The notes: a model not told the origin generated them from the letters alone. A stretch of DNA of 64,000 nucleotides from Patescibacteria group bacterium (GCA_042570545.1 JBHPGJ010000006.1:1327-65326); one strand, 5' to 3'; shown: positions 1,862-45,433, counted from the first letter of the stretch. Made by a program: numbers and translations.

Positions 1862-3013
1862 TCACAATGATGAATAATTAAAATCAATTGTTCCGTCATT
1901 TACCTGCTGATAAACATTTAGCGAACTACTGACAGCCAGTCTGGCCAAGAGCTCATGAGCGGCTTGTTCGTTCATGACAATGGGCTGACTATTATTTATC
2001 TCGATCGGGATAATTTGGATGACATTATAATTCTCAGACAGGCTGATCTTTAAAGCGATCGTCTCTTGTGTCTGACTGGAAAAATACTGGTCAAAAATAA
2101 AATTACCCAGCGAATAAAATATTACCGTATCTTTATATTTTTCAATCTCTTGTAAAACGTGTGGATGGTGACCAATAATTATATCAGCTCCGCTATCTGC
2201 CAGCCTGTGGGCAAGTGACTGCTGTCTAGTATTCGATACGGATTGATATTCATTGCCCCAATGAATATTGATTATATCAATAGCTTCATCAGATAATTCT
2301 TTTACCAGCTTAATCGCTTGATCTTCCTTAAAGGCCGGCCAGACAGCACTGGTTAACCCAAAAAAGCGGAATTGTTGATTATTAATGTCTACAGTTTCAA
2401 CATATTCCCGGCCCACTTCCCGTGGGTGTCCAAAGGCTGTCACCTTGGCCTTGGCTAATTCTTCTTGAGTGTTAGCAAAGGCCACTGGGCCAAAATCAAA
2501 AGTGTGATTATTGGCCAAAGTAACAATGTCAATATTATTATCCTTTAGGATTGGAGCGATATCTTTATCAAAATTAAAGCGCATTGTGTAATCAGCTGTC
2601 TGTCGATGATTTTCGACTATGGGACCTTCCAAATTAGCAATTACTGAATCTACGCTTTTTAGTAAGTTGGCCACTCCAGCAAAGGGATAACTAGCGCCGT
2701 GTCTATTCATTAACGTCTCGACATGCCGACCCAACATCACGTCACCAATTGCCAGCATGGTAGTGCGATTGGAATTAAGGGGAAGATGTTCAATTACAAC
2801 ATCAGTAGTGACTGGTTCATTGTCTGGTACGGTATTTGTTATAACCGAGGTAACTACTGTCGATTGACCATTTACTATTATCGCCAGACCAAATAATAAA
2901 CTAACAACTAATAATGAGAATATAAAAACGGTTACCGTGCTTCGAATATTAATTCCGATTTTATTATGGTTGGTGTTTCTCAAATTTTTCCATCTAAGCC
3001 ACTGATCGGACAT
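1862..3013 (-). CDS. CapA/PgsA-family metallophosphatase-like protein (poly-gamma-glutamate capsule biosynthesis family), membrane anchored
   Basis: 383 aa; N-terminal TM; motifs LAIGDVMLGR ... GADIIIGHHPHVLQ ... YSLGNFIFDQ typical of PGA_cap/CapA calcineurin-like phosphoesterase family. Confidence 0.7.
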   Translation of the reverse strand: MSDQWLRWKNLRNTNHNKIGINIRSTVTVFIFSLLVVSLLFGLAIIVNGQSTVVTSVITNTVPDNEPVTTDVVIEHLPLNSNRTTMLAIGDVMLGRHVETLMNRHGASYPFAGVANLLKSVDSVIANLEGPIVENHRQTADYTMRFNFDKDIAPILKDNNIDIVTLANNHTFDFGPVAFANTQEELAKAKVTAFGHPREVGREYVETVDINNQQFRFFGLTSAVWPAFKEDQAIKLVKELSDEAIDIINIHWGNEYQSVSNTRQQSLAHRLADSGADIIIGHHPHVLQEIEKYKDTVIFYSLGNFIFDQYFSSQTQETIALKISLSENYNVIQIIPIEINNSQPIVMNEQAAHELLARLAVSSSLNVYQQVNDGTIDFNYSSL

Positions 3014-3063
3014 GCTTAGTATATCATAAGTATTTCTAGAAATTTTTTTTCGTTATATACATC

Positions 3064-4575
3064 GTGTATACTACAGCCATGTTAACCGTGAAGACTTGGC
3101 TCAATTTGGGCATAATAATTATAATCGCTTGTTTCGGGGTGTTTCTGGCCTTTAATCACGCCCATCAAACAACAATTATCACTTCGGATTCAATAACCTA
3201 TATTGATGCCGCTCGGCATATGGCCGATGGTTTGGGTTACCGGACAAGTCTTCTGTCCTTCTCTGACGGTGGTTCAAATCCTTCCTTAACTTTGTGGCCG
3301 CCATTTTATGCCATGACCATAACGCCATTGATCTCGGCCAATATTGATCCAATTTATGCCGGCCGGATAATAAGCGCTTTGGCTTATGGATTATTAATTA
3401 TAGTTATCGGCTTATGGATCAGGTCATCAAAAGGACCGCTAATGGGCGTTGTGGCAGCTACCATTTTATTAACCTTACCCGCCCTTATTGATACGGCTAC
3501 TACCGTTTTATCCGAGTCTTTGTATACCTTAGTATTTATCATATCGGTTTGGTTGGGCTGGATTGCCATTAAACATAACCGGCTTACTTGGTGGTTTATA
3601 TTCGGTCTGGTCATCGGACTGAGTGCATTGACAAAATATTTGAGTATTGTTTTAGTTGCCCTTATTCCTATCGCTGCACTGATTCTGGCTAAGCGTAATA
3701 AAAATTACCGGTCAGTGATTAAACCAACCTTGATTGGACTGGCTGGCGCTGCTTTATTTATTCTGCCCCTGTTGATGCGCAATGTTATGCTCGGTCAGCC
3801 GCTGGGCGGTGGTGAGCGATTAGTATCAACCGTACCGTTTCTATCTAACATTGGCGACACAGTAAAAACATTAGCAGCGGATTTTAGTAGCAGCCTTTTG
3901 TGGATAGCAATTTCTATTAGTACTTTGCTGGCCTTGATAATTATTATATGGCGCCGCAAATTCTTACGATCTTGGAAGAAAATTTCCTGGCCACTCATTG
4001 CTGCTGCTACCTATACGATCGGTTTGATTGTAATACGTTCGGTAGTACATGTAGACCGAATCTACACTAGATATCTAATGCCGATATATCCCTTGATCAT
4101 TTTTATTGTGATAATTCTGCTTTGGGATGCAATAAAAATAATAAATGGACGCTGGGCCAATATTGCTATGGGAATTGCGGCCATAATCTTTTTAGCTTGG
4201 GGTATTAAAACCTATGATTTTCAAGCCGGCAAATTCCAGGCCGAGCCAACATATCGAGCTAGGGTGGTACAGAAGCAGACAACTGAAAATGATTTAATAA
4301 TCGGTAATATTGCCCGTGAGTATAATCTATATCTGGGAAGAGATGTTATACAATTGTATAGTGACGAACGTTCACCTCAATTAACCACTGAGTTAACCCG
4401 AGAATTAACCCATAAATGGTCCAGCGCATATAATCGAATAATAATCGCTGTGACACCAGATCTTCATGCAGAATCTTATGGTGAATATGTCGCCAGCTTA
4501 AGCCGGGGCGAAAAAAATGATCTTGAATTACTTGAACAAACTGACAGAGTTATCGTCTACGAAGTACCTAGGTAA
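3064..4575 (+). CDS. polytopic membrane protein, putative GT-C fold glycosyltransferase (ArnT/PMT family-like)
   Basis: 503 aa, >10 predicted TM segments; first loop motif YIDAARHMADGLGY resembles the DE-x-RYAEIAREM loop motif of family 39/83 glycosyltransferases; assignment by motif only. Confidence 0.45.
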   Translation: MYTTAMLTVKTWLNLGIIIIIACFGVFLAFNHAHQTTIITSDSITYIDAARHMADGLGYRTSLLSFSDGGSNPSLTLWPPFYAMTITPLISANIDPIYAGRIISALAYGLLIIVIGLWIRSSKGPLMGVVAATILLTLPALIDTATTVLSESLYTLVFIISVWLGWIAIKHNRLTWWFIFGLVIGLSALTKYLSIVLVALIPIAALILAKRNKNYRSVIKPTLIGLAGAALFILPLLMRNVMLGQPLGGGERLVSTVPFLSNIGDTVKTLAADFSSSLLWIAISISTLLALIIIIWRRKFLRSWKKISWPLIAAATYTIGLIVIRSVVHVDRIYTRYLMPIYPLIIFIVIILLWDAIKIINGRWANIAMGIAAIIFLAWGIKTYDFQAGKFQAEPTYRARVVQKQTTENDLIIGNIAREYNLYLGRDVIQLYSDERSPQLTTELTRELTHKWSSAYNRIIIAVTPDLHAESYGEYVASLSRGEKNDLELLEQTDRVIVYEVPR

Positions 4576-4588
4576 TAAATAATTTTTC

Positions 4589-7500
4589 CTAAATATCAAT
4601 TTCTCTATAGGGTGGCCACGGTTTCCATATTTCTTTTTGCTTAATATGTACCGAATTGGAAGTTACCAGCTCGCCAAAGCCATCCACATCTTTTGGCTTT
4701 ATGGTAAAGTACCAATCATCATTACCATAGGTGTATCTAGACAAGATAATTTCTCTATCATTTAAGTTTGTTTGTAATATTCCATTTCTATACCAGCGTA
4801 TTTCAGTAGCACCTTCTGGATCACCGTTTTCATCAAAGTATGTATAATGGGCAGTCAAACTGCTAGTCCAGTTCGGATTTTCCGGAGTGATATAAAGATC
4901 CCTGGCTTCTGGCGTGGTAGGAATAAAATACAGAGCGCCCATATCCATACAAGTACCATCAGGATCTTGATCATCAGGATCACTCAGACAATCAATCCCA
5001 TCGTTATCTAGGTCAGGGTGCCCTGCGTCAATGCATAGTGAGCTTCTTTGAAGATGATAATTATTTTCATTTGGATCCAAGAACAATGGATCAACATTCA
5101 AATTGCCTGTGCCAGCAAAACCACCCTGAATGTCAGAATAAGTTATATCAACAGTTCCTCTAATGAAGTAATTGGGCGTATTGTCCCAAATTATAGTATT
5201 TTTTATGTTTAATGGTGCAAATAGTGAATACAAACCGCCACCCCGAGAAGACGCAGTGTTGCCTGTTATTGTATTATTATTAAATGCAATTACTGGATCA
5301 TTAAATAAATACACACCACCTCCATCTACAGCTTCATTATTTGCTACAATATTATTAGTAAATGATATTACATCAGGAGTTCCTGCGAAATAAACACCGC
5401 CTCCCCAATCAGTAGCAGTATTATTTATTATTATATTACGAGTAATTGTTGCCCTGGTATAATTAATATAAATTCCACCACCAGTAGGAGCTTCGTTCCC
5501 AGTAACAATATTATTTCTGATAGTAGGAAAAGAATTATAGCCGCAATAAATACCACCGCCATGATTAATGGCGCTGTTATCTTTAATTATATTATTTATT
5601 ATCGTTGGTGAGGTATCATCATCACAATATATTCCTCCACCATATAATTGTCCGCTGCCATTTTGTATAGTAAATCCATCTAGTACTGCTTCTTCTGTTT
5701 CTATATTACTGAACTTAACTACTGTATTAATCTCTCCGCCATCAATGATCGTATCCTCAGCTTCAGCTATACTCAATATTGTAATATTTTTTCCTGAATA
5801 ATCTATAGAAGTATATATACCAGGATCAACTTTAATAGTATAACCGTTTTGAGACTCGTCTATTGCTTCCTGTATTTGTATATAACCTTCATTTACAGAA
5901 TTCATACTTTGGTCATATAGCTGGACCGGATAATATACTGAATCAATCTGTCTTTCATAAGCTCCCATATCCACATAGTTAGGGTTGCCAATACCAGTAT
6001 TAGGTGACACTCCAAGATCATCATATCTGGTATTATAATCTAAATCTAAATCAGGACTGATCAAGCCATCTGCTGCATCACCATCACCAGCATCAATGGC
6101 TGGTGAAAAAGTTCGGAGCATAAAGTTATCTTCTATTGGATTCATGAACATGGGATCACTATCAATATTTCCCGAACCAGTAAAGCCATCCTGAATCACG
6201 GAATAATTTACTGATAAAATATCGCCTACTCCAGTTGTGTAAATTCCACTACCTTGCGTAGCTATATTATCCCAAATAATATTGTTGGTAATTAAAGTAT
6301 TTATATTTACTGTGGAATATAAGCCGCCCCCATCATTTATCGCATTATTTTTTGTAACGGTATTATTTATAATATTAGCAGAAGAGCTTTCAATATATAA
6401 TCCAGCTCCATTGTTTGTAGTCGTATTATTAATTATCTTATTACTATAAATAACCGGTGAGGCATTGTTAATTGCATAAATACCTCCGCCAGAATCTGCA
6501 TTATTGGTGGCAATAATATTATTTTTTATGATTGGACTAGCACCATCAATGCTAATCCCTCCGCCGTTTGTGGCATCGCCATTCTGCAGGGTAAAACCAT
6601 CAAGCACTGCTGAGCTTGTCTCTGCATTATGGAAAGCAATCACACTCGCTTCAGACTTTCCATCAATAATTGTTACCTCGGGGCCGTCTACACTCTTTAT
6701 GGTTATATTTTTACCGTTATAATCTATGTTTTCATTATAAGTACCTGCTGAAACAAGTATGGTCTCACCGTCTGAAGCAATGTTAATGGCGCCTTGTATG
6801 GTAGGAGAATCTATCGGCACTTGTATTGGCCCTAATTGAGAGTTATAAACCTGTAATGCAGGATCACCCAATAAATTTAAACCAAATAATGTCCACCTCA
6901 TGTAGTTTATAGTATTGGCATCATTAATAAATGTAATTTTTAAATCCGCTACTGTTTCGCCAATACGATAATACTGTTCAGTAAAAAAGGATTTATAAAA
7001 TTCTTTGTCTAAATAATCAAAATAAGGAACAAATCCATCTCGGCTACTGCCGACATAAACCATGCCTCCGCCATTGGGATTTGTTACCCAATGCTCACCA
7101 ATACTGTCTTCGTCTATTGCCGCTGCCCAGCAACCTCCGGAATATAAGATAGAATATCTGGGACTGGGTGTGCCATTAGTCAAACTATCAATGTCACTAA
7201 TAAAGATTGGTTCATCACCAGTAGATAAAAGATTGACATTGCCATGATCTAAATGATTGGCAATAAAATGGCCGTTTTCAAATGCGGCCATAACATTGGC
7301 CTTAGTATCTGTGCCATCTTTACCATATAATTTAGTAATCGGATCAAATAGATCAGGCAAATCATCCTCATCGATCATGTCTTTGAAATACGACTGATCA
7401 CCTATTATAGGATCATCAGCTGCAATAAAAAGGGCTTGATAAGGATCATAGTCATCAAATGTGGTTGATTCAAATGCTAATGTCTTATCAACAAAAGCCA

Positions 7501-8782
7501 TGGCCTCGGCCTGATCTTCAACTGGTGCCCGTCCGACAAAAACATCAGGGTATAAATCTACATTATCCACCCCCTCTTCACCAAAGTGGTTATTACTATT
7601 GGCATCCCAGTCACCATCTAAATCGGAATAATACATATCCGTTGGCACTCCTCCTCCCTCGAAGATAATTGGATTCAAATTCGTTAAAGCCTTTCTGTCC
7701 GGCACAATATTAGTGTCTCCGCCCAGCAAAACATAAACCAGTCCACTAGTATGAAGATGTTTTATATAGTTCCTTATTGTTTCCTGATCATCTCTGCCTA
7801 CTCTTGCTGGCGGATCCAATTGTGCCCAGGTATTTATTTCATCGACTGAAACTATTTCTGGTGATAAACCCATAGATATCCTACTGTTTATCAATGGCTG
7901 GAAAACATTATTATCTTTTAATGCTTGGTTGGTAACAATTAAGTAATCGGTAAAGTTTGTATCTATCTCAAGTTGTTCAGAGTCTTTAATGTCGGTTATG
8001 GATATTATACTATCCACTTCTTGTGGATTTGAAACCATTTTCTTTAAATAACTGCTTATTGATTTTTTGCCTGCTTTTGACCTCGTTACCTGAGATATTA
8101 CTTCATTACTGTTTTCATATACTATCTGAAACTTTATTTCTGTATGAGATAAAAGTTTTCTTGATACTGGCTGATATTGGATTGGATAGACATTTAATGA
8201 AACAATATTTACCCCGCCCAACAAACCCTCTGACGATACTTCTAAAATATTACTTGGGTAATATTTTGCCTGGTTATAAACTATTGGATTAGGCTCAGTA
8301 AATTCAGGTTTTTCATAAAATGAATGTGGTTTTTGTGTGGGATATATATTAAACGGTTTAGGTATTTCATCAGTCTTATCTTGTAGAATTTTTATTCTCT
8401 TAAACTTTTTTCCCTTGGGAATAGCATAATGTAAGACCATACGAGGTAATCGCGGGCTGCCTACTTTTAACGTATATGTAGCATTGGGCAAATCGACCGT
8501 GTCATAATTATCAAGCTTGCTGAATCTCAAGTCATTAGAGGAAAGACTTATCGAATATGTTTCAGTTATTTCTTTTTGCGCTATATTCTTCTTTGCAGTT
8601 AGCGAAGTACCAAAACTACCTATGGCATAGGCAAATAAACCAACTGAAAAAAACAACAGCAAAATAGCTATAAAGATAGTTTTAATATTCACATAAATAC
8701 CAACATCCTGCTTTACTTCTATTTCTTTCAACAGTTTGCCATTTGACACAATAATAAAATTTAAAAAAAATAAACACTCCAA
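4589..8782 (-). CDS. giant (1397 aa) surface protein: N-terminal signal anchor, clan CD (gingipain/C25-like) peptidase-like domain, two duplicated parallel beta-helix repeat blocks
   Basis: N-terminal TM IFIAILLLFFSVGLFAYAIG; His-Gly (NHLDHGNV) and Cys (LYSGGCWAAA) dyad spacing typical of clan CD peptidases; two homologous blocks of ~22-aa repeats NNIIxxNxAxxxGGGIY (beta-helix/pectate-lyase-like); start codon uncertain (no good SD at 8782). Confidence 0.65.
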   Translation of the reverse strand: MECLFFLNFIIVSNGKLLKEIEVKQDVGIYVNIKTIFIAILLLFFSVGLFAYAIGSFGTSLTAKKNIAQKEITETYSISLSSNDLRFSKLDNYDTVDLPNATYTLKVGSPRLPRMVLHYAIPKGKKFKRIKILQDKTDEIPKPFNIYPTQKPHSFYEKPEFTEPNPIVYNQAKYYPSNILEVSSEGLLGGVNIVSLNVYPIQYQPVSRKLLSHTEIKFQIVYENSNEVISQVTRSKAGKKSISSYLKKMVSNPQEVDSIISITDIKDSEQLEIDTNFTDYLIVTNQALKDNNVFQPLINSRISMGLSPEIVSVDEINTWAQLDPPARVGRDDQETIRNYIKHLHTSGLVYVLLGGDTNIVPDRKALTNLNPIIFEGGGVPTDMYYSDLDGDWDANSNNHFGEEGVDNVDLYPDVFVGRAPVEDQAEAMAFVDKTLAFESTTFDDYDPYQALFIAADDPIIGDQSYFKDMIDEDDLPDLFDPITKLYGKDGTDTKANVMAAFENGHFIANHLDHGNVNLLSTGDEPIFISDIDSLTNGTPSPRYSILYSGGCWAAAIDEDSIGEHWVTNPNGGGMVYVGSSRDGFVPYFDYLDKEFYKSFFTEQYYRIGETVADLKITFINDANTINYMRWTLFGLNLLGDPALQVYNSQLGPIQVPIDSPTIQGAINIASDGETILVSAGTYNENIDYNGKNITIKSVDGPEVTIIDGKSEASVIAFHNAETSSAVLDGFTLQNGDATNGGGISIDGASPIIKNNIIATNNADSGGGIYAINNASPVIYSNKIINNTTTNNGAGLYIESSSANIINNTVTKNNAINDGGGLYSTVNINTLITNNIIWDNIATQGSGIYTTGVGDILSVNYSVIQDGFTGSGNIDSDPMFMNPIEDNFMLRTFSPAIDAGDGDAADGLISPDLDLDYNTRYDDLGVSPNTGIGNPNYVDMGAYERQIDSVYYPVQLYDQSMNSVNEGYIQIQEAIDESQNGYTIKVDPGIYTSIDYSGKNITILSIAEAEDTIIDGGEINTVVKFSNIETEEAVLDGFTIQNGSGQLYGGGIYCDDDTSPTIINNIIKDNSAINHGGGIYCGYNSFPTIRNNIVTGNEAPTGGGIYINYTRATITRNIIINNTATDWGGGVYFAGTPDVISFTNNIVANNEAVDGGGVYLFNDPVIAFNNNTITGNTASSRGGGLYSLFAPLNIKNTIIWDNTPNYFIRGTVDITYSDIQGGFAGTGNLNVDPLFLDPNENNYHLQRSSLCIDAGHPDLDNDGIDCLSDPDDQDPDGTCMDMGALYFIPTTPEARDLYITPENPNWTSSLTAHYTYFDENGDPEGATEIRWYRNGILQTNLNDREIILSRYTYGNDDWYFTIKPKDVDGFGELVTSNSVHIKQKEIWKPWPPYREIDI

Positions 8783-8912
8783 AAAAGGAGCATCTTACTT
8801 ATCTTTTGGATAAAACAAACTCTTATCCATTTATAAAAATTTACTTATTCTTAATTTAGATTTTAGCTTATTTTAGCGATTTAGTCAATCACTATCTTAA
8901 AGAGAAGAGGGA

Positions 8913-8940
8913 TTGACAAAAAACAATATTATGCTAATCT
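8913..8940 (+). promoter_or_regulatory. possible sigma70-type promoter (TTGACA-16-TAATCT) for downstream membrane-protein gene
   Basis: Perfect -35 hexamer TTGACA at 8913-8918; weak -10; SD GGAGG 7 nt before ATG 8988. Confidence 0.25.
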
Positions 8941-8987
8941 GCTTAGCTATTTGTTCGTAAACAACCCACTCTTCCTGGAGGCGAAAC

Positions 8988-9590
8988 ATGCTCGAGACCA
9001 TACTGATACTGCAGTTTTGGGGAGGGATGTTTTATCTCCTCAACAAGATATTTTTCTCACGGGCTGAGCGTAGTCAATCAGTTATTGCTGCCCGACGTTG
9101 GCGGATAGCTTCGTGGGCAGTATACCTGCTTGGTTTACCGCCCTGGCTGATCATCTTCGTCTCGGAGAGAAACTGGATAGCGGCCGGCCTGGAAGCTGGT
9201 GGCACTCCGGCGATGCTGCTGGGCTTAATTATTGCCCTGCGCGGCAAGGGCCGGGCTCCACGCTGGCTTGACTACGTTGCTCTGCTAGCAATAACCGTTG
9301 GTATCATCTATAGCCTGAAGGATTTCGGTGGTCTGAACACTATCAACCAGTATCTTGAACTGGGCTTAACGCTGGGATTCTTAGTCGGCACCTATCAGCT
9401 GGCCAAAGAAAAACCACAGGGTTACTTGTGGTTCATACTGATGAACCTATCCTGCGGCTCGCTGATGGCCGTCCAGCACTACTACTGGTTGATGCTTCAG
9501 CAAATGGTGTCATTAGGCTTTGTCATCGATGCTTATCGGACACAAAAACATCGGGCAGATCAAACTGACCCCGATCGTATAATCACTTAA
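8988..9590 (+). CDS. small polytopic membrane protein (about 6 TM), unknown function (transporter S-component-like size)
   Basis: 200 aa, multiple hydrophobic segments; GGAGG RBS; first gene of the higher-GC block. Confidence 0.55.
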   Translation: MLETILILQFWGGMFYLLNKIFFSRAERSQSVIAARRWRIASWAVYLLGLPPWLIIFVSERNWIAAGLEAGGTPAMLLGLIIALRGKGRAPRWLDYVALLAITVGIIYSLKDFGGLNTINQYLELGLTLGFLVGTYQLAKEKPQGYLWFILMNLSCGSLMAVQHYYWLMLQQMVSLGFVIDAYRTQKHRADQTDPDRIIT

Positions 9591-9622
9591 CTGGGTATCT
9601 CATAGCGAGGTCCCAGTTTTAA
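9591..9622 (+). terminator. intrinsic terminator (ctggg...cccag + TTTT) after membrane-protein gene
   Basis: 5-bp GC stem 9591-9595/9612-9616 followed by TTTT. Confidence 0.4.
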
Positions 9623-9623
9623 T

Positions 9624-9666
9624 TATAAAAAAGATAAAGCCTCGGCGTCTTGGTAAACGTCGAGGC
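9624..9666 (-). terminator. intrinsic terminator for radical SAM gene (9-bp stem gcctcggcg/cgtcgaggc, T-run on minus strand)
   Basis: Hairpin 9639-9666, minus-strand U-tract corresponds to A-run 9626-9637. Confidence 0.4.
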
Positions 9667-9691
9667 ATTGTGGTTGAACGAAGCGGTCCTC

Positions 9692-11218
9692 CTACCGCAT
9701 ACTTTTCATCAGTTCGGCTTCTTCTGTACTGACGGGCAAATTCTCTGGTAATGGGGCCAAATCGATGCCAAAATGCTTTCGTCGCAAGTCAGCATAGTCC
9801 TGAGCCCTGTCCAGACGAACTATTCCTACACCGCCAGACATGGGATGGATTCCCCGTTTAGCCGAGCCGTAAGAAAATCGACTAAAAGCATCAACGGCAG
9901 TGCGATTGAACGGAGACATACGCTCCCAGGCCGGTTTAGCAACACGAGCCGCTACCAGCTGTGGATCGTAGTATTCCCGATAGCACTGAAACAGCAGCTG
10001 CTGTAAATCATCCCGCGATAGATTCTCATGCTGCCAGACCAAAGTTGTCGCATCGAACCGATCTAGATTCTCATCATCAATCAGCCCTTCCGCCAAAAAA
10101 CGATTATACAGCACCGTTCCTGGGAATGGAGACAGAATGTAGAACCAGGCAATCATCGGATTTAGCTCAATCAGTTGGCGTAGATGTTCGCGAACATCGG
10201 CTGCTGTCTGACCGGGGAAACCAATGATATTGCTGAAATGGGCTGCTATCCCGTATTGCTCGCACAGTCTCACGATCTTGGCATAGACTTCGGGCCGGTT
10301 ATGGGTCTTTCTCCTTTCTTTCAGAGTTTTAGTGTCAAACGATTCAGCACCAACAAACATGTCGAAACAGCCAGCCCGACCAAGCAGCTCAAAGAGCTCT
10401 TCGTCGTGATGAACCTGAGCGTCACACTCCACAAAGTACTCCAATCCAAGATCTTCAGCGATGATCGCTCTGAGTAGATCATGCACTCCCGGGATCTTGT
10501 TCAAGTTGTCAGAGGTGAGCATTATCATCTTCACTCCAGATTGCTTAGCCGCCCGGAGACTAGCTAGTGTCACTTCGATCGCTTCGCTTCTGATGATCCT
10601 GCCAGCAACCTCGGTGACCGAGCAAAAATCGCAGATCTGAGTACAACCCCGCGCCGGATATACGCCCATAAAGGGAAAGGCATAGTGACGCATCTCCTCT
10701 TGGCTGGGTGGCAGTAGGGGCTTAGTTACCAGCTTGTGTTGCCAGCGCTGGCCAGCTCCATAGACCGGCTGTACTTCTCCAGCTAAGGCATCTTCAAGTA
10801 TGGTTTCCCACACAACTTCTGCCTCGGACAGAGAAAAGGCCATACCCGGTCTCTGGAATTGCTCGGTTACACAGGTCATTGGGTGCGGACCACCCATGAC
10901 CACATTTCGAACTCCTCGTGAATGAGCCAGGGCCGCTAGATCAAGGGCCCGATGGAATTGGTGTGATTGAACACCTACCAGGGCCAGTAGCGAACACGTT
11001 TCCGGTCTCAACAATTCAAGATAGTTGAGGTTTGTCTGAACATACTCATCCACTAAGTGGACAGTAACAGGGACATCACCGATTTTTGCTGGCGTTATAC
11101 ATTCTATTTGACGCTGAGTAGCATTAGGCATGAAGCCACGGCGGAATCTCTCCACCGCGCCATCAGGCCCATATTTACTGGGTTTTAACAAAACAACCCG
11201 TAAAGCGGTGGGAGACAT
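9692..11218 (-). CDS. B12-binding domain radical SAM protein (class B rSAM)
   Basis: 508 aa; CxxxCxxC cluster motif GCTQICDFCS; N-terminal VVLLKPSKYGPDG ... VVMGGPHP B12-binding-like segment preceding the rSAM core. Confidence 0.75.
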   Translation of the reverse strand: MSPTALRVVLLKPSKYGPDGAVERFRRGFMPNATQRQIECITPAKIGDVPVTVHLVDEYVQTNLNYLELLRPETCSLLALVGVQSHQFHRALDLAALAHSRGVRNVVMGGPHPMTCVTEQFQRPGMAFSLSEAEVVWETILEDALAGEVQPVYGAGQRWQHKLVTKPLLPPSQEEMRHYAFPFMGVYPARGCTQICDFCSVTEVAGRIIRSEAIEVTLASLRAAKQSGVKMIMLTSDNLNKIPGVHDLLRAIIAEDLGLEYFVECDAQVHHDEELFELLGRAGCFDMFVGAESFDTKTLKERRKTHNRPEVYAKIVRLCEQYGIAAHFSNIIGFPGQTAADVREHLRQLIELNPMIAWFYILSPFPGTVLYNRFLAEGLIDDENLDRFDATTLVWQHENLSRDDLQQLLFQCYREYYDPQLVAARVAKPAWERMSPFNRTAVDAFSRFSYGSAKRGIHPMSGGVGIVRLDRAQDYADLRRKHFGIDLAPLPENLPVSTEEAELMKSMR

Positions 11219-11337
11219 AATGATTCCTTTCGTGAACAGTTATAAAGGACTGTTTGATCTACATCAAACTTATTCTCATCCTATTCCGAATTAATAATTG
11301 AGTCAATAATTGGGATTATTAGCCCGTTAAAAGCCCC

Positions 11338-12408
11338 CTATCGTGTCCAGGATTCTATATTTGGATAGACAGACGGACAGGCTCCAGCGCCAGTAGCCAC
11401 ATCCAGCTGATTTTCATTGACCAGCTTGGCATAGGCCCAGTTATCGTTATAAGCAATACATTGCTCATCACCCGTTTTCATGTCTTCGGGTTTCAATATA
11501 TTATCGTAATCTCTTACTGAAAAATCACGCGCGCCATCCTGCCTAATCGCCAGCCCGACAAAACTAGTATAAGTGCCAAAGGTTAGCCAGCGGCCATTGG
11601 TATCGGTATCATTATCTTGGAACCAACCACCAGCTGCTGTCCCAGCAACGTCATAACTAGGATTGCCACAATTGCCATCATCAGCATTGGGCTGCCGCAA
11701 TTTGGAGTAATAAAAAGACTTAAGCTCATCAGTGTAATAATCATACGGACAGTCAGCGACCGTATTTTGGTCCCAATTCCATCTAGCCGGATTTATGTAA
11801 CTGGCCAGCTTAGCGGTATTTAATAAAAGAAAATCATATGTTCTGGCTAATTCAGTGCCATCAGTATAACCGATCAACTCGCCAGCCTTTACCGATATAG
11901 AGACATATTCAGCTACCGCTGAACTTTCTGAAGGTTCTGTGGGCGCGTACTGAAATATGTCATCACTGACTCTGTCTAGGTGATCCAACAAGAACGTCAC
12001 TTCACAACTGGCACGAAACCATAGACCATACTCTCCATAGTCTACGTCAGGGCCACGTTTGGCATATACAATCGCCTCAAGTGTCGCATCAGTGGGAGCA
12101 TATACTTCTGTTTGACTACCTTCGGCAACACCAATATAACTTCTACCGTGAGAGCCACCATCAATGGCGCCAATTGGACCAATTTCATTTATCTTATCGT
12201 TTTCCATAAAGGCACTAGTAAAAACAGGATCGGGATTGCTGACACAGCCTGAATTAATTACTTTGTCTTCAATATTACCATTACTAGCTTGCTCCGCTTG
12301 CCCTTGCTCAAACGATAAAGCGTCAGGCTTCGAAGATTCTGGTCTAAATAAAAAATAACCAGCAACTATAATGATGATTATGGTTGTAGCAATAAATAAA
12401 ATTTTCAT
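11338..12408 (-). CDS. hypothetical secreted protein with N-terminal signal anchor
   Basis: 356 aa; N-term MKILFIATTIIIIIVAGYFLF; no recognised motif. Confidence 0.5.
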   Translation of the reverse strand: MKILFIATTIIIIIVAGYFLFRPESSKPDALSFEQGQAEQASNGNIEDKVINSGCVSNPDPVFTSAFMENDKINEIGPIGAIDGGSHGRSYIGVAEGSQTEVYAPTDATLEAIVYAKRGPDVDYGEYGLWFRASCEVTFLLDHLDRVSDDIFQYAPTEPSESSAVAEYVSISVKAGELIGYTDGTELARTYDFLLLNTAKLASYINPARWNWDQNTVADCPYDYYTDELKSFYYSKLRQPNADDGNCGNPSYDVAGTAAGGWFQDNDTDTNGRWLTFGTYTSFVGLAIRQDGARDFSVRDYDNILKPEDMKTGDEQCIAYNDNWAYAKLVNENQLDVATGAGACPSVYPNIESWTR

Positions 12409-12449
12409 AATTTAAGTATACCAAATTAGTTTATCTGAGCCATCTATTT

Positions 12450-12490
12450 CTGAATAAAATAAAACCGACTTCCTCGCAAAAAGAAGTCGG
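12450..12490 (-). terminator. intrinsic terminator after pentein-like gene (8-bp stem ccgacttc/gaagtcgg + U-tract on minus strand)
   Basis: Hairpin 12465-12490, 4 nt after stop; A-run 12454-12464 on plus strand. Confidence 0.5.
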
Positions 12491-12493
12491 CAA

Positions 12494-13546
12494 CTACACA
12501 CTTTTCATCAGTGGCGTCGGAGCTTCGCTGACCAGACAGCGAATACCGGCGTATTTCCAGACCGGAAAGTAACGGATTGGTACTGGTGTCGTGACTACTT
12601 TATCAGCACCGACGATATCGCCGACTAACATCTCCGTTGCCGGATCACCGCTGGTCATCAGTACACGTCCATCGGGAAATTGCACAAGATTCAGCGAATA
12701 GGGAACGGCCAAGCTGTCCGGAGCATGATCGACGATTCCTAACGGGCGCAATCTCTGACGAAGCAGTACGACTGATTCGAACTCCGGCAGTGCGTACCAA
12801 CAAGGAGTCTTGCTTCTCCCGCGCCACTGGATTACGCAGCAGTGCGGATCAGCAATATGGTGCAATCTGCCATCACGGCCACGCAGGAGACAACCGACAC
12901 GGTCAATGTGATCATTGAAGCGTGGCCGATTATCGATGACCTCAGCCGTATACGTCCCCACAACCGGTGACGGATAGAATGCAACATTCAGCTGGTTAAT
13001 CAAGTCTTCGCTAGCTTTAGCTGCACTAACTGAATGTCCTCCCGTTTCCACAATCCTTTCCGATACCAGTACACTTTTACCAGAGTGCAGCACCCTGCCG
13101 CCAATGCCCCAAGGTGAAGAAAATATACGGTAACCGTCTTTTTCCTCGACCAGCAATTCAGCGATCTCCGGATTCACAAGCAACAAATTCGGCAAAACTG
13201 TTGCGAAATCACGCGGGTAAGCTACTGAAGGCGGAAAAAAGCCTTTATCAAACCCGGCCAGCCGGCAGTCTAGTGCTTCAACACAGGCGCCGAGAACTGT
13301 CTTGTCAGCACTATCGGGATGAGAATAAACAATACGAAAGTCAATTCCCATCGACTTCAAGGTATAGATGATCGCCAGGTATTCCTCTTGCAATTTTTTG
13401 AGAACCGTTTGCTTATCCTGCGTTTCCCTCAAAACTGTTTGACAAAGAGCGAGCTGTCCGTATGGAGCCCTAAAACTTTTTCTTGCTTGTTCTTCAGTCT
13501 CCAACAAAGGCTCGCCAACTAAATACAACTGTTCCATCGGTCTCAC
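12494..13546 (-). CDS. amidinotransferase/arginine-deiminase/DDAH (pentein, guanidino-group modifying) superfamily-like protein
   Basis: 350 aa; C-terminal KYAGIRCLVSEA resembles the G-x-x-C-x-[ST] catalytic-Cys segment found near the C-terminus of pentein enzymes; AAGGAGG RBS; motif-level call only. Confidence 0.45.
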   Translation of the reverse strand: MRPMEQLYLVGEPLLETEEQARKSFRAPYGQLALCQTVLRETQDKQTVLKKLQEEYLAIIYTLKSMGIDFRIVYSHPDSADKTVLGACVEALDCRLAGFDKGFFPPSVAYPRDFATVLPNLLLVNPEIAELLVEEKDGYRIFSSPWGIGGRVLHSGKSVLVSERIVETGGHSVSAAKASEDLINQLNVAFYPSPVVGTYTAEVIDNRPRFNDHIDRVGCLLRGRDGRLHHIADPHCCVIQWRGRSKTPCWYALPEFESVVLLRQRLRPLGIVDHAPDSLAVPYSLNLVQFPDGRVLMTSGDPATEMLVGDIVGADKVVTTPVPIRYFPVWKYAGIRCLVSEAPTPLMKSV

Positions 13547-13621
13547 CTCCTTAGTCCGAGAACGATAAGACGTTATAGTATTTTGGTGATTACGTCAAGG
13601 GAAAAAGTATTTAGTTATGTA

Positions 13622-14698: not shown

Positions 14699-14725
14699 GC
14701 TTCCGTGGGCGTTTTATTTTTGAAC
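14699..14725 (-). repeat. copy A of conserved ~28-nt upstream element (minus-strand reading GTTCAAAAATAAAACGCCCACGGAAGC)
   Basis: Aligns with copies at 15345-15372 and 16096-16123; lies 40 nt upstream of start of 14044..14658 and overlaps stop codon of methyltransferase gene. Confidence 0.5.
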
Positions 14726-15331
14726 TTTTTTAGCAAGCAGTTTTAACCAACGAATTTTAAAATATTTCTTATCAACCGCTTTCAATACGGTAAAACCGTT
14801 CTCGATCAATACTTTTTGAAAATCATCTAATCCCCAATAGGAGAAAAATCTAGAATATGTATAGCCATAGTCTTTTTCGGTAACAACCTTCTCGCCTTGG
14901 CCCTGCTTAACAGCTATGTGAACAATCCCCTTGTCTTTTGTAACTCGTGAAATTTCCCGCAAGGCATTGGGCATGTCTTTTTTAGGAAAATGCAGTAATG
15001 AAGCTTTGGCAAAAACGCCATCGAATACCTGGTCTTCATATGGCAGCGAAAACAAATTACCTTGTATAAAATCCACTGTCGGATTTTCTTTCTTTGCTAT
15101 CTTTAACAATTCATCAGACAAATCTAGCCCAGCTACCTTTAATTCACCCTGAATTAATTTCTTAGTGTCTGTGCCCGGCCCGCAACCCAAATCAAGCACA
15201 TAGGCACCCTTAAATAGAGCTTCTATAAAATACTGAATAAAATCATCATCCCAAGTGTCGCTAAGATGATCGGCCTGATAGTCTTTAGCTATACGATCAT
15301 ATGTAGATCGTAACTCGTTTGATTTCATCAA
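14714..15331 (-). CDS. class I SAM-dependent methyltransferase
   Basis: 205 aa; motif I VLDLGCGPGTD; TTG/ATG start. Confidence 0.8.
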   Translation of the reverse strand: MMKSNELRSTYDRIAKDYQADHLSDTWDDDFIQYFIEALFKGAYVLDLGCGPGTDTKKLIQGELKVAGLDLSDELLKIAKKENPTVDFIQGNLFSLPYEDQVFDGVFAKASLLHFPKKDMPNALREISRVTKDKGIVHIAVKQGQGEKVVTEKDYGYTYSRFFSYWGLDDFQKVLIENGFTVLKAVDKKYFKIRWLKLLAKKVQK

Positions 15332-16606: not shown

Positions 16607-16682
16607 TGGCTCCGGGGGCAGGATTCGAACCTGCGATATCCGCGTTAACAGCGCGGCGTTGTACCAACTCAACTACCCCGGA
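16607..16682 (-). tRNA. tRNA-Asn (anticodon GTT), 76 nt with encoded CCA
   Basis: Manual fold: acceptor TCCGGGG/CCCCGGA (U1-A72), D-stem GTTG/CAAC, anticodon stem CCGCG/CGCGG, loop CTGTTAA, T-arm GCAGG-TTCGAAT-CCTGC, discriminator G, CCA. Confidence 0.85.
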
Positions 16683-23454: not shown

Positions 23455-23530
23455 TGGCTCCGCGAGTCGGACTCGAACCGACAACCCACTGGTTAACAGC
23501 CAGTTGCTCTACCAATTGAGCTATCGCGGA
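23455..23530 (-). tRNA. tRNA-Asn (anticodon GTT), second non-identical copy, 76 nt with CCA
   Basis: Manual fold: acceptor TCCGCGA/TCGCGGA, D-arm GCTC-AATTGGTA-GAGC, anticodon stem ACTGG/CCAGT loop CTGTTAA, T-arm GTCGG-TTCGAGT-CCGAC, discriminator G. Confidence 0.85.
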
Positions 23531-44679: not shown

Positions 44680-44707
44680 ATCAACATTATATCATTTATA
44701 TACATTA

Positions 44708-44755
44708 ATAAAAAAATGCCTCCCACTCTACGAGCGCAGAGCGGGAGGGCTTGGA
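44708..44755 (-). terminator. hairpin terminator of the high-GC gene (gcctccc..ctct / agag..gggaggc with U-tract on minus)
   Basis: GC-rich imperfect stem 44721-44753; A-run 44711-44718 on plus strand. Confidence 0.4.
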
Positions 44756-44780
44756 AAACATGTACGAGGTGACAGCGGAT

Positions 44781-45329
44781 TTAGGCCGGCGGCGGTGCCG
44801 AAGAACTCTTGGTGCTTCCGACCGCCATATCCTGCGGCTTGACGCACGTAAAGATCGGGATGAGCTGGTGCTTGGGATCGAGGTTCATCGCGCCATTGAC
44901 GTTGACGCAGATGGTATGATCGTTGTCCCAGAGCTGACAGGCTGCCCACGATCCTTCGAGGGTGCGCATGGCCCAGTCGATGAGCGCGCCGCTCATCAGT
45001 GCCTCGAGCTTCTCTTCGCCTCCCACGACCGGGACGAAGTCGTCCTTGGTCTCGGAAAAGCAGAGAAACAGATAGGGCACCTTGTCGGTCTTGTTGGGAG
45101 GCTCGGCCATCTGTACGTAGCAGAAATGCAGGTACAGACCGGCGCGGATCAAGTCAGCGTAGAGCTGATCGCTCCGGCAGGGCATCGGTTGGGCCACCAT
45201 CTTGCCCGGCTGGGTGCGCTTCTGCGACCGCCGTTGGGCGATCACGTCGTTCTTGCGATCCAGCGTGGGCACGCCGAACTCATCCGGTGGTTCAAAATTC
45301 TTGAGACGAACCAAGACTACTTTACCCAT
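44781..45329 (-). CDS. hypothetical protein (182 aa) encoded by a ~60% G+C segment; likely horizontally acquired
   Basis: GGAGG RBS 6 nt upstream of ATG; own terminator; G+C far above the rest of the window; opposite-strand 218-aa ORF has Arg/Gly/Ala/His-rich antisense-like composition and is rejected. Confidence 0.55.
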   Translation of the reverse strand: MGKVVLVRLKNFEPPDEFGVPTLDRKNDVIAQRRSQKRTQPGKMVAQPMPCRSDQLYADLIRAGLYLHFCYVQMAEPPNKTDKVPYLFLCFSETKDDFVPVVGGEEKLEALMSGALIDWAMRTLEGSWAACQLWDNDHTICVNVNGAMNLDPKHQLIPIFTCVKPQDMAVGSTKSSSAPPPA

Positions 45330-45433
45330 TTTGGGCCTCCGATCATGCTGGTACTGGTTGGAGTTGATACGAGAGCTACTACGAATTCAGTTTTCGTCTC
45401 TGTCTAAGCTAAGGCTGTCAAAGAATCTATACC

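Follow-up and report, generated by a model that had tools for sequence, protein, structure and literature searches.

The locus described here raises the question of whether four adjacent genes in a member of the Patescibacteria group were acquired together, as a single functional unit. The genes occupy positions 8988-13546 of a stretch of 64,000 nucleotides (GCA_042570545.1 JBHPGJ010000006.1:1327-65326, hereafter the window), taken from a 69,404-nt contig that belongs to a Patescibacteria metagenome-assembled genome (MAG). They encode a PnuC-like membrane transporter, a radical S-adenosylmethionine (SAM) enzyme, a membrane-anchored extracytoplasmic protein and a pentein-fold protein. The original prediction, made from the sequence of the window, had proposed that this block could be a horizontally acquired cassette dedicated to one pathway; such a cassette, if true, would have implied a new pathway. 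In the present analysis, the block appears, with good probability, to be a set of four accessory genes that have no functional relationship to one another and are transcribed for the most part separately, and neither an operon nor a single acquired cassette. The genes are located in a variable patch of a Patescibacteria chromosome that is otherwise ordinary and contains many genes for surface and transport functions. A horizontal origin is plausible only for the radical SAM gene, with or without the PnuC-like gene.

All four open reading frames (ORFs) were present where the original prediction had placed them, and both of the motifs that it quoted, GCTQICDFCS and AGIRCLVSEA, were found in the ORF translations. 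For three of the block proteins, NCBI entries of the same contig match at 100% identity (P0060, P0180 and P0002; locus tags ACFL04_02320 and ACFL04_02325). The test proposed with that prediction had two arms, concerning the domain assignments and the single cassette, and these came out opposed: the domain assignments were largely upheld, while the single cassette was not supported.

The gene neighbourhoods of the homologues were compared with that of the block. In total, 32 loci were fetched, and those compared comprised ∼16 independent pentein loci (L001; L002-L004; L005-L007 with L011; L012-L019; L026-L027; L028-L029; L030-L031; L032), three loci with close homologues of the radical SAM enzyme (L008-L010) and five loci with PnuC-like homologues. 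The proposal of an acquired cassette for one pathway is not supported: the arrangement did not recur in any of these groups of loci, and a native-looking gene splits the block. When all of the block proteins were searched against the 32 loci by tblastn, each protein was matched only alongside its own family, and tblastx revealed no synteny with the window past a single gene, even in L001, the locus of the closest pentein relative (68% identical). The radical SAM homologues in L008-L010 are stand-alone genes with unrelated neighbours. In L002, L026 and L030, the pentein gene is part of a conserved core array, located at ∼6-16 kb in each locus, with the order (pyrI)-pyrF ... pentein ... pheS-pheT-gyrB-secE-nusG-L11. 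Because it is embedded in the conserved core array of one clade, the pentein family looks native to the Patescibacteria.

Signs of mobility were likewise sought at the locus. No integrase or transposase was present among the ORFs, the repeats flanking the block were only at chance level, and the nearest tRNA gene is located 3 kb beyond the block. Comparison with plasmid and phage DNA gave no match for the block, and the plasmid-borne relatives of the radical SAM enzyme are only 25-27% identical. PADLOC returned no defence-system match for the four block genes. A pair of tRNA-Asn(GTT) genes (16607-16682 and 23455-23530, minus strand) was considered as a duplicated attachment site and rejected; the two are ∼7 kb apart, ∼80% identical and represent distinct genes.

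The base composition of the block was analyzed gene by gene. The G+C content of the whole window is 42.0%, and its 58 crude ORFs have a mean of 42.1% (standard deviation 4.4). The PnuC-like (50.7%), radical SAM (50.6%) and pentein (50.0%) genes lie ∼1.9 standard deviations above the ORF mean, and the gene for the extracytoplasmic protein (43.1%) is ordinary. The description of a compositionally distinct 4.5-kb block is thus correct for three genes of ∼50% G+C, but the gene between them is native-looking, so that there are two G+C-rich stretches instead of one. Similarly, the flanks had been described as having a G+C content in the mid-30s, and the immediate flanks do contain 35-39%; these values, however, lie below the 42% baseline of the window, and the contrast seen in the original prediction therefore looked exaggerated. 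In terms of tetranucleotide divergence, ranked over 126 segments of the window, the 9.0-11.5 kb region occupies ranks 3 to 8, the 11.0-12.5 kb region is typical (rank 118), and the pentein region occupies ranks 12 to 22, with rank 12 for 12.5-14 kb.

The G+C content expected from the amino acids alone is 44.4% for the PnuC-like gene, 47.1% for the radical SAM gene, 44.7% for the gene of the extracytoplasmic protein and 47.2% for the pentein gene, and the corresponding residuals of codon choice (z) are 3.2 (the maximum in the window), 1.7, −0.7 and 1.3. The excess of ∼8 points in the radical SAM and pentein genes derives mostly from amino-acid composition, and codon choice is clearly deviant only in the PnuC-like gene and less so in the radical SAM gene. 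The excess is also largely intrinsic to the families: in ∼13 of 16 other loci the pentein homologues exceed the DNA on either side of them in G+C content, as do the PnuC-like homologues in 4 of 5 and the radical SAM homologues in 3 of 3 (51.7%, 57.7% and 73.5% in L008-L010, versus 50.6% in the window). G+C content alone is therefore weak evidence for transfer at this block, which provides a worked example of a step of +8 points that arises mostly from amino acids and family bias, and is thus an unsafe marker of horizontal transfer.

The orientation of the genes and the signals between them are in line with separate transcription. The PnuC-like gene lies on the plus strand and converges on its three neighbours, all of which lie on the minus strand. 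A G+C-rich hairpin with a 10-bp stem (7 GC pairs) occupies the space between the convergent PnuC-like and radical SAM genes (9639-9666), and since a T-run follows it on the minus strand it is likely to be the terminator of the radical SAM gene, ahead of which a promoter-like sequence (TTGACT-17-TAGGAT) is found at 11306-11278. A Shine-Dalgarno sequence of its own precedes the pentein gene, and a strong terminator is found directly 3′ of the gene, an intrinsic-terminator-like hairpin with a T-run at 12491-12464 on the minus strand (12 pairs, a loop of 4 and the tail TTTATTTTAT). The hairpin scan of the block detected no terminator 3′ of the gene for the extracytoplasmic protein, so that the notion of a hairpin terminator for each gene holds for these two hairpins and not for that gene. 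Together, the mixed orientation and the internal terminators argue against one operon.

Several observations weigh against the reading of four unrelated genes. An unusual G+C content of ∼50% is common to three of the four neighbours, and the extracytoplasmic and radical SAM genes could be co-transcribed, as no terminator was detected between them. In a Saccharibacteria lineage, a distant (27% identical) radical SAM protein of 508 aa and the same architecture is encoded 2.5 kb upstream of the pentein gene. The region concerned (∼3-9 kb in L005 and L006) encodes this 508-aa protein, a 141-aa ORF, an HhH-GPD glycosylase, SurE, a 407-aa form of the pentein-like protein and a CYTH protein; the start of the pentein gene overlaps the surE stop by 4 nt, and L028 and L029 likewise have a homologue of the CYTH protein (64% identical) in the neighbourhood of the pentein gene. 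A still more distant radical SAM gene lies 7 kb from the pentein gene in L028. Finally, in L023, an independent 62-kb metagenome contig, a PnuC-like homologue (56%) and a distantly related pentein-family gene (28%, E 5e-30) lie 2.8 kb apart, in the opposite relative orientation; the pair occupies 2243-3238 (minus strand) and 5998-6588 (plus strand), with a gene for a TrmB-like regulator and two uncharacterised genes in between, and is the only second instance of two block families occurring together. By a rough estimate, one such partial co-occurrence among ∼18 loci is not significant, and these cases are kept as leads.

In the light of these results, three other accounts of the block were weighed. 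If the four genes were one acquired cassette, a guanidino-bearing substrate, either imported or a peptide, would be modified in turn by the radical SAM and pentein enzymes, and the PnuC-like protein would act in import or export. The adjacency of the genes, the ∼50% G+C content of three of them and the two partial co-occurrences, of a distant radical SAM gene near the pentein gene in Saccharibacteria and of a PnuC-like gene near a pentein-like gene in L023, would fit such a scheme, which we nevertheless regard as unlikely. The arrangement is absent from all of the compared pentein, radical SAM and PnuC-like loci, and the two partial co-occurrences differ from each other in the gene pair and in spacing, with the opposite relative orientation. 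The distributions of the families differ as well: the named close relatives of the radical SAM enzyme are from Acidobacteriota, and those of the pentein and secreted proteins are mostly from Patescibacteria. Moreover, the compositionally native secreted-protein gene splits the block, the pentein gene has a terminator of its own, and no precursor-peptide-like ORF, integrase or repeat boundary was found.

A more restricted account, which refines the reading of four unrelated genes, holds that only the convergent PnuC-like and radical SAM pair (∼8.95-11.3 kb) is recently foreign, the secreted-protein and pentein genes being native, and to this we would give somewhat less than an even chance. The pair forms the segment with the highest G+C content and, among the high-G+C segments, the most atypical tetranucleotide composition (ranks 3 to 8 of 126), its codon residuals are elevated (z of 3.2, the window maximum, and 1.7), and the closest named relatives of the radical SAM enzyme are acidobacterial (52-57% identical), in loci with genes typical of larger genomes. 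Conversely, the PnuC-like homologues are found on contigs of low to mid G+C content, and L023, the one among them with a readable context, carries genes (DUF285, PG_binding) that look Patescibacteria-like; the PnuC-like and radical SAM genes are never adjacent in the compared loci; the radical SAM homologues exceed their flanks in G+C in every host checked, so that the bias is partly intrinsic; and no insertion scars were found. In addition, most of the database matches carry no taxonomy, such that the named relatives are only a subset and Patescibacteria homologues may be among the rest. The third account, in which the G+C step reflects a chimera of assembly or binning that joined a higher-G+C fragment into a Patescibacteria contig, is highly improbable. 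An abrupt rise in G+C at ∼8.95 kb and the acidobacterial affinity of the closest named radical SAM relatives would be expected of a chimera, but AT-rich intergenic DNA and a gene of native composition are interspersed among the higher-G+C genes, the PnuC-like and pentein relatives occur on Patescibacteria or Patescibacteria-like contigs, and housekeeping genes run on at both sides of the same contig. The radical SAM enzyme is only ∼55% identical to anything else, and its gene (50.6% G+C) lies below its L008-L010 homologues in G+C content. The individual proteins are described in turn below.

The pentein-fold protein is the most notable of the four. Its ORF opens at a GTG codon at 13546 on the minus strand, and the gene as assigned here (12494-13537, minus strand) encodes a cytoplasmic, guanidino-group-modifying-like enzyme of 347 aa from an ATG at 13537. 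This ATG is likely to be the true start, because the homologues begin with MEQLYLVGEP and a GGAGG ribosome-binding site, read in the sequence at 13546-13550, is located 8 nt 5′ of it. The NCBI annotation (P0002, ACFL04_02325) covers only the C-terminal 230 aa of the gene, and thereby drops D113, the first invariant aspartate. In the database search, 59 homologues of ∼341-354 aa were detected, none of which has a Pfam domain. The named relatives and loci belong to the Patescibacteria group, Parcubacteria, Saccharibacteria, Doudnabacteria and Paceibacterota, together with one MAG labelled as Deltaproteobacteria. The protein itself gave no match at E≤0.1 to Pfam, where PF02274, PF04371 and PF19420 are among the curated pentein families, or to NCBIfam, and no match to the sequences of the PDB was obtained with either the single sequence or the family profile. 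A HMMER profile of the family, searched against 1.84 billion protein representatives, gave 302 matches at E≤0.001 and did not reach the large known pentein families. A bridge to those families by Pfam scan of 36 divergent members was tried and rejected, as only unrelated matches to SEC-C and BTG were returned. Nothing relevant to this family was found in the literature. The window protein is thus a member of a small, mostly Patescibacteria pentein-fold family that lacks a Pfam model, and is annotated here as a truncated hypothetical protein.

The fold and the active-site residues claimed for this protein are supported by structure prediction and conservation. The AlphaFold2 model, computed from the family alignment, has a mean predicted local distance difference test (pLDDT) score of 92.8 and a predicted template-modelling (pTM) score of 0.92. 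When the model was compared with the PDB by Foldseek, all 38 of the 38 matches at E≤0.001 were guanidino-group-modifying enzymes, i.e., DDAH, ArgZ/AgrE, arginine deiminase (ADI), StrB1 and AstB (E 7.6e-7 to 6.7e-4). In 41 pentein sequences of the family, D113 (in PRDF), G147, G149 and G150 (GEGGR), H213 and D215 (NDHxDR) and C337 (GIRC) are invariant, the cysteine being located 13 residues from the C-terminus; the AGIRCLVSEA segment, which had been proposed to contain the catalytic cysteine, thus proved to carry an invariant one. Among the 36 divergent members, which extend to ∼24% identity and are numbered from M4, neither D110 nor D212 varies, and conservation is at least 90% at H210 and C334. 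Catalytic roles were assigned to C337, H213, D113 and D215 by their position and order along the sequence, and not by residue-level superposition. By analogy with the superfamily, C337 would serve as the nucleophile, H213 as the general base, and D113 and D215 as the acids that hold the guanidinium group. Attack of C337 on the guanidino carbon would form a covalent S-alkylthiouronium intermediate, followed by release of ammonia, and the likely reaction is the guanidino hydrolysis of arginine or an arginine-like amino acid. A substrate that carries a carboxylate, arginine for instance, would be compatible with the conserved residues R112, R151, R216 and R336.

The protein resembles the hydrolase-type penteins with which it was compared, namely DDAH (3rhy, 6szq), ArgZ/AgrE (6juy, 6lrf), arginine deiminase (2a9g) and AstB (1ynf), with a Foldseek probability of 1.00 and a TM-score of 0.42-0.50 relative to the query and of at most 0.63 relative to the target. 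It shares with them the invariant cysteine in the C-terminal region, an invariant histidine, two invariant aspartates, and a soluble, cytoplasmic character; no signal peptide was predicted, nor a transmembrane segment at the 1.5 threshold. In contrast to these similarities, sequence identity is only 10-16%, and the window protein exceeds DDAH or the N-domain of ArgZ in length by ∼70-90 residues. The earlier designation as amidinotransferase-like is accurate to the extent that StrB1 (1bwd) and the AGAT amidinotransferases share the superfamily fold and the Cys/His/Asp logic of the window protein. However, no PF02274 match was found, and StrB1 ranks only 30th in the Foldseek search (E 1.2e-4), behind the hydrolases; the data do not separate transfer from hydrolysis.

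Not all proteins with this fold are enzymes, and the 350-aa protein could in principle be a non-catalytic pentein, such as eIF6/Tif6 or the trypanosome RESC5, a proposition we consider quite unlikely. These two non-catalytic penteins are among the weaker Foldseek matches (E 2e-3 to 1e-2), and no sequence-level tie to any enzymatic pentein family was found; they rank, however, below the 38 top structural matches, all of which are enzymes, and the conserved cysteine, His213, Asp113, Asp215 and the GxGGR loop are retained down to ∼24% identity. An invariant Cys/His/Asp set is expected in catalytic penteins, and not in scaffolding ones. As to its role, the family may be an unrecognised deiminase or dihydrolase that would allow bacteria with reduced genomes to use scavenged arginine or another guanidino compound, perhaps with release of ammonia and of a ureido product from which carbamoyl groups would enter pyrimidine synthesis. 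This suggestion is doubtful as it stands; the pyrimidine connection would fit the adjacency of pyrI and pyrF in one clade, the overlap with the surE stop in Saccharibacteria and the presence of a PnuC-like importer close by in two genomes. With a confident fold and an intact Cys/His/Asp set, and unrecognised by the profile databases, the family is a clean target for enzymology, and it bears on nitrogen and arginine metabolism in the Patescibacteria, which are poorly known.

Some additional features of the pentein loci in other genomes were observed. Deoxyhypusine-synthase-like and arginase-family genes are found ∼7 kb upstream in the core array of L002 and L030. In L030, the deoxyhypusine-synthase-like gene (1-1404) carries Intein_splicing, Hint and HNH signatures, and secA, pheS, pheT and gyrB appear to be split, which suggests a frameshift-rich (long-read) assembly. 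In L001, the gene adjoining the pentein gene (8696-9703, minus strand) encodes an RVT_1 reverse transcriptase, suggesting a retroelement or a diversity-generating retroelement.

The radical SAM gene (9692-11218, minus strand) encodes a stand-alone enzyme of 508 aa with an N-terminal B12-binding-like domain. The assignment to the radical SAM superfamily was confirmed by PF04055 (75.5 bits versus a cut-off of 29.5; 7e-21) and by an invariant CxxxCxxC motif, whose residues C192, C196 and C199 are retained in all of 37 homologues. A motif of the GGPHPMT type (G109, G110, P111 and H112) is also conserved across these sequences. The N-terminal B12-binding-like segment of the original prediction is less firmly established. 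For residues 1-173 the top Pfam match is PF02310, yet its score of only 13.2 bits compares with a cut-off of 32.1, and none of 120 listed homologues has a precomputed PF02310 match; the nearest solved relatives, on the other hand, are radical SAM enzymes with B12 domains, the family profile having matched AprD4, 9ccb, TsrM, CysS, TokK and OxsB among the sequences of the PDB. The name given by the NCBI annotation pipeline (PGAP) is 'B12-binding domain-containing radical SAM protein'. In AprD4 (6fd2), TsrM (6wte), CysS (9n1b), TokK (7kdx) and OxsB (5ul2), as in the window protein, the radical SAM core with its CxxxCxxC motif directly follows an N-terminal domain of ∼175 residues. In contrast to these known enzymes, the C-terminal 100 residues of the window protein match nothing. 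Its architecture is class-B-like as judged from the sequence, and the use of cobalamin is predicted at most. The best solved relative, AprD4, is a dehydratase that possesses a B12 domain but is not known to use cobalamin, and methyltransferase chemistry should therefore not be assumed for the window enzyme. The protein would be expected, as a member of the superfamily, to cleave SAM reductively at a [4Fe-4S] cluster bound by the CxxxCxxC motif.

The specific function of this enzyme was not indicated by equivalog models. All of the NCBIfam scores were far below their cut-offs (HpnJ, 90 versus 577.6; PhpK, 83.4 versus 600; rSAM_ladder_B12, 62 versus 360), and other sub-threshold matches included AprD4, BchE and more, with a maximum of 90 bits against cut-offs of 250-750. 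A lipid-modifying role is a tentative lead, suggested by the weak matches of the HpnJ and ladderane type and by the acidobacterial relatives. The enzyme belongs to a very large, uncharacterised radical SAM family found in bacteria with large genomes, of which more than 1678 homologues were detected at E≤1e-10. Among the matches listed, the closest homologues other than the protein itself are 52-57% identical, and those with names are from Thermoanaerobaculia or Vicinamibacteria. With moderate support, the radical SAM gene is the best candidate in the block for a horizontal origin.

The PnuC-like gene (8988-9590, plus strand) encodes a small polytopic membrane transporter of 200 aa, for which the NCBI version of 187 aa starts at an ATG at 9027. 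The assignment as a transporter is supported by PF04973 (NMN_transporter), which matched residues 31-184 of the protein over positions 14-171 of the 175 in the profile, with a score (28.3 bits) barely above the cut-off of 27.3, and by the PGAP name of the 187-aa form, 'nicotinamide mononucleotide transporter'. No NCBIfam match was found. The alternative proposal of an ECF S-component found no backing, with no ECF match in Pfam at E≤0.1 and no genes for an ECF T component or ATPase among the neighbours. Five homologues, 43-63% identical, are located on metagenome contigs, and the 56%-identical homologue in L023 fails to match Pfam at E≤0.01. In its size, polytopic membrane character and near-full cover of the profile the protein resembles the PnuC family, members of which take up nicotinamide riboside and related nucleosides or vitamins. 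In contrast, the score is marginal and neither a riboswitch nor a NadR-type partner indicates the substrate; no riboswitch or other RNA was detected at E≤1 either 5′ of the gene or elsewhere in the block. As judged from the family, its probable role is the uptake of a vitamin precursor of the pyridine or another nucleoside type.

The remaining gene (11338-12408, minus strand) encodes a membrane-anchored extracytoplasmic protein of 356 aa, composed of an N-terminal transmembrane helix, a disordered linker, a LytM/M23-like domain and a cysteine-bearing, beta-rich C-terminal domain, as determined from AlphaFold2, Foldseek and the family alignment. Its description as a signal-anchored secreted protein agrees with the single transmembrane segment at residues 3-21 and with the AlphaFold2 model (pLDDT 90.0), which shows a helix at residues 2-20 and a low-confidence linker at 23-50. 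No Pfam match, including PF01551, and no NCBIfam match was obtained. Among the 37 homologues, those with names include Patescibacteria/Parcubacteria, one Nanoarchaeota MAG and one Flagellimonas. Six cysteines (55, 135, 220, 247, 317 and 344) show at least 90% conservation, up to full invariance, and the protein would be membrane-anchored and disulfide-bonded. In Foldseek searches it matched lysostaphin, Csd1/2, an M23 peptidase of N. gonorrhoeae, and the LytM domains of SpoIIQ, EnvC and DipM, with a probability of ∼1.0 and E values of 1e-4 to 1e-2.

The closest parallels are the degenerate LytM domains of EnvC, NlpD, DipM and SpoIIQ, which share the fold of approximately residues 60-200 and an extracytoplasmic location with the window protein. 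In contrast, the matches to them are weak with low whole-chain TM-scores, the window protein has an extra cysteine-rich beta domain, and its invariant set, H143 and D192, differs from that of LytM domains. The zinc-ligand positions HxxxD and HxH, mapped by eye on the alignment, are not conserved and read GRSY(I/V) and (Y/F)DF, respectively. Since the LytM-like domain lacks the zinc ligands, the model makes a binding or regulatory module of the cell envelope the more likely function, rather than a peptidase. This LytM-like envelope family, which lacks the zinc-ligand motifs and occurs mainly in Patescibacteria, may be relevant to the biology of the cell surface in these episymbionts.

The wider setting of the block is consistent with a variable patch in an otherwise conventional chromosome. 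The first ∼16 kb of the window contain accessory and surface genes, which encode a PGA_cap protein, a PMT_2 glycosyltransferase, a C25 peptidase, the four block proteins, an ACT-domain protein, a small secreted protein and a methyltransferase. Outside ∼1-16.6 kb, the window is filled with housekeeping genes, including those for TruB, IspH, SOD, sigma-70, DnaG, PPDK, GroEL/ES and RNR, as well as UvrABC, RNase J, an aminoacyl-tRNA synthetase, SHMT, FolD, YchF, S6, SSB and EF-P.

Certain genes and regions in the vicinity deserve mention in their own right. The gene at 4589-8782 (minus strand) encodes a 1397-aa surface protein in which a gingipain-like Peptidase_C25 domain is combined with a C25 propeptide and with repeats of the right-handed beta-helix type. 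It has the lowest G+C content (35.9%) and ranks 1, 2 and 4 in Kullback-Leibler (tetranucleotide) divergence, and is thus more anomalous than the block. An analogy with the gingipain and deiminase of P. gingivalis (Rgp and PPAD), in which this C25 peptidase would act together with the pentein, was considered and rejected, given that the pentein lacks a signal peptide and that no C25 peptidase is present at the other pentein loci. Two genes past the block, a class I SAM methyltransferase (14714-15331, minus strand) matched the PADLOC model mad2 (mads_2; E 9e-17), with no further defence components nearby. Finally, a G+C island of ∼57% extends from 44700 to 45430, between a gene for a small membrane protein and uvrC, and contains overlapping ORFs on both strands, of which the 182-aa ORF on the minus strand (44781-45329) is the more protein-like. 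The island gave no Pfam match and no Rfam match at E≤1, and may represent another foreign gene or an unrecognised RNA.

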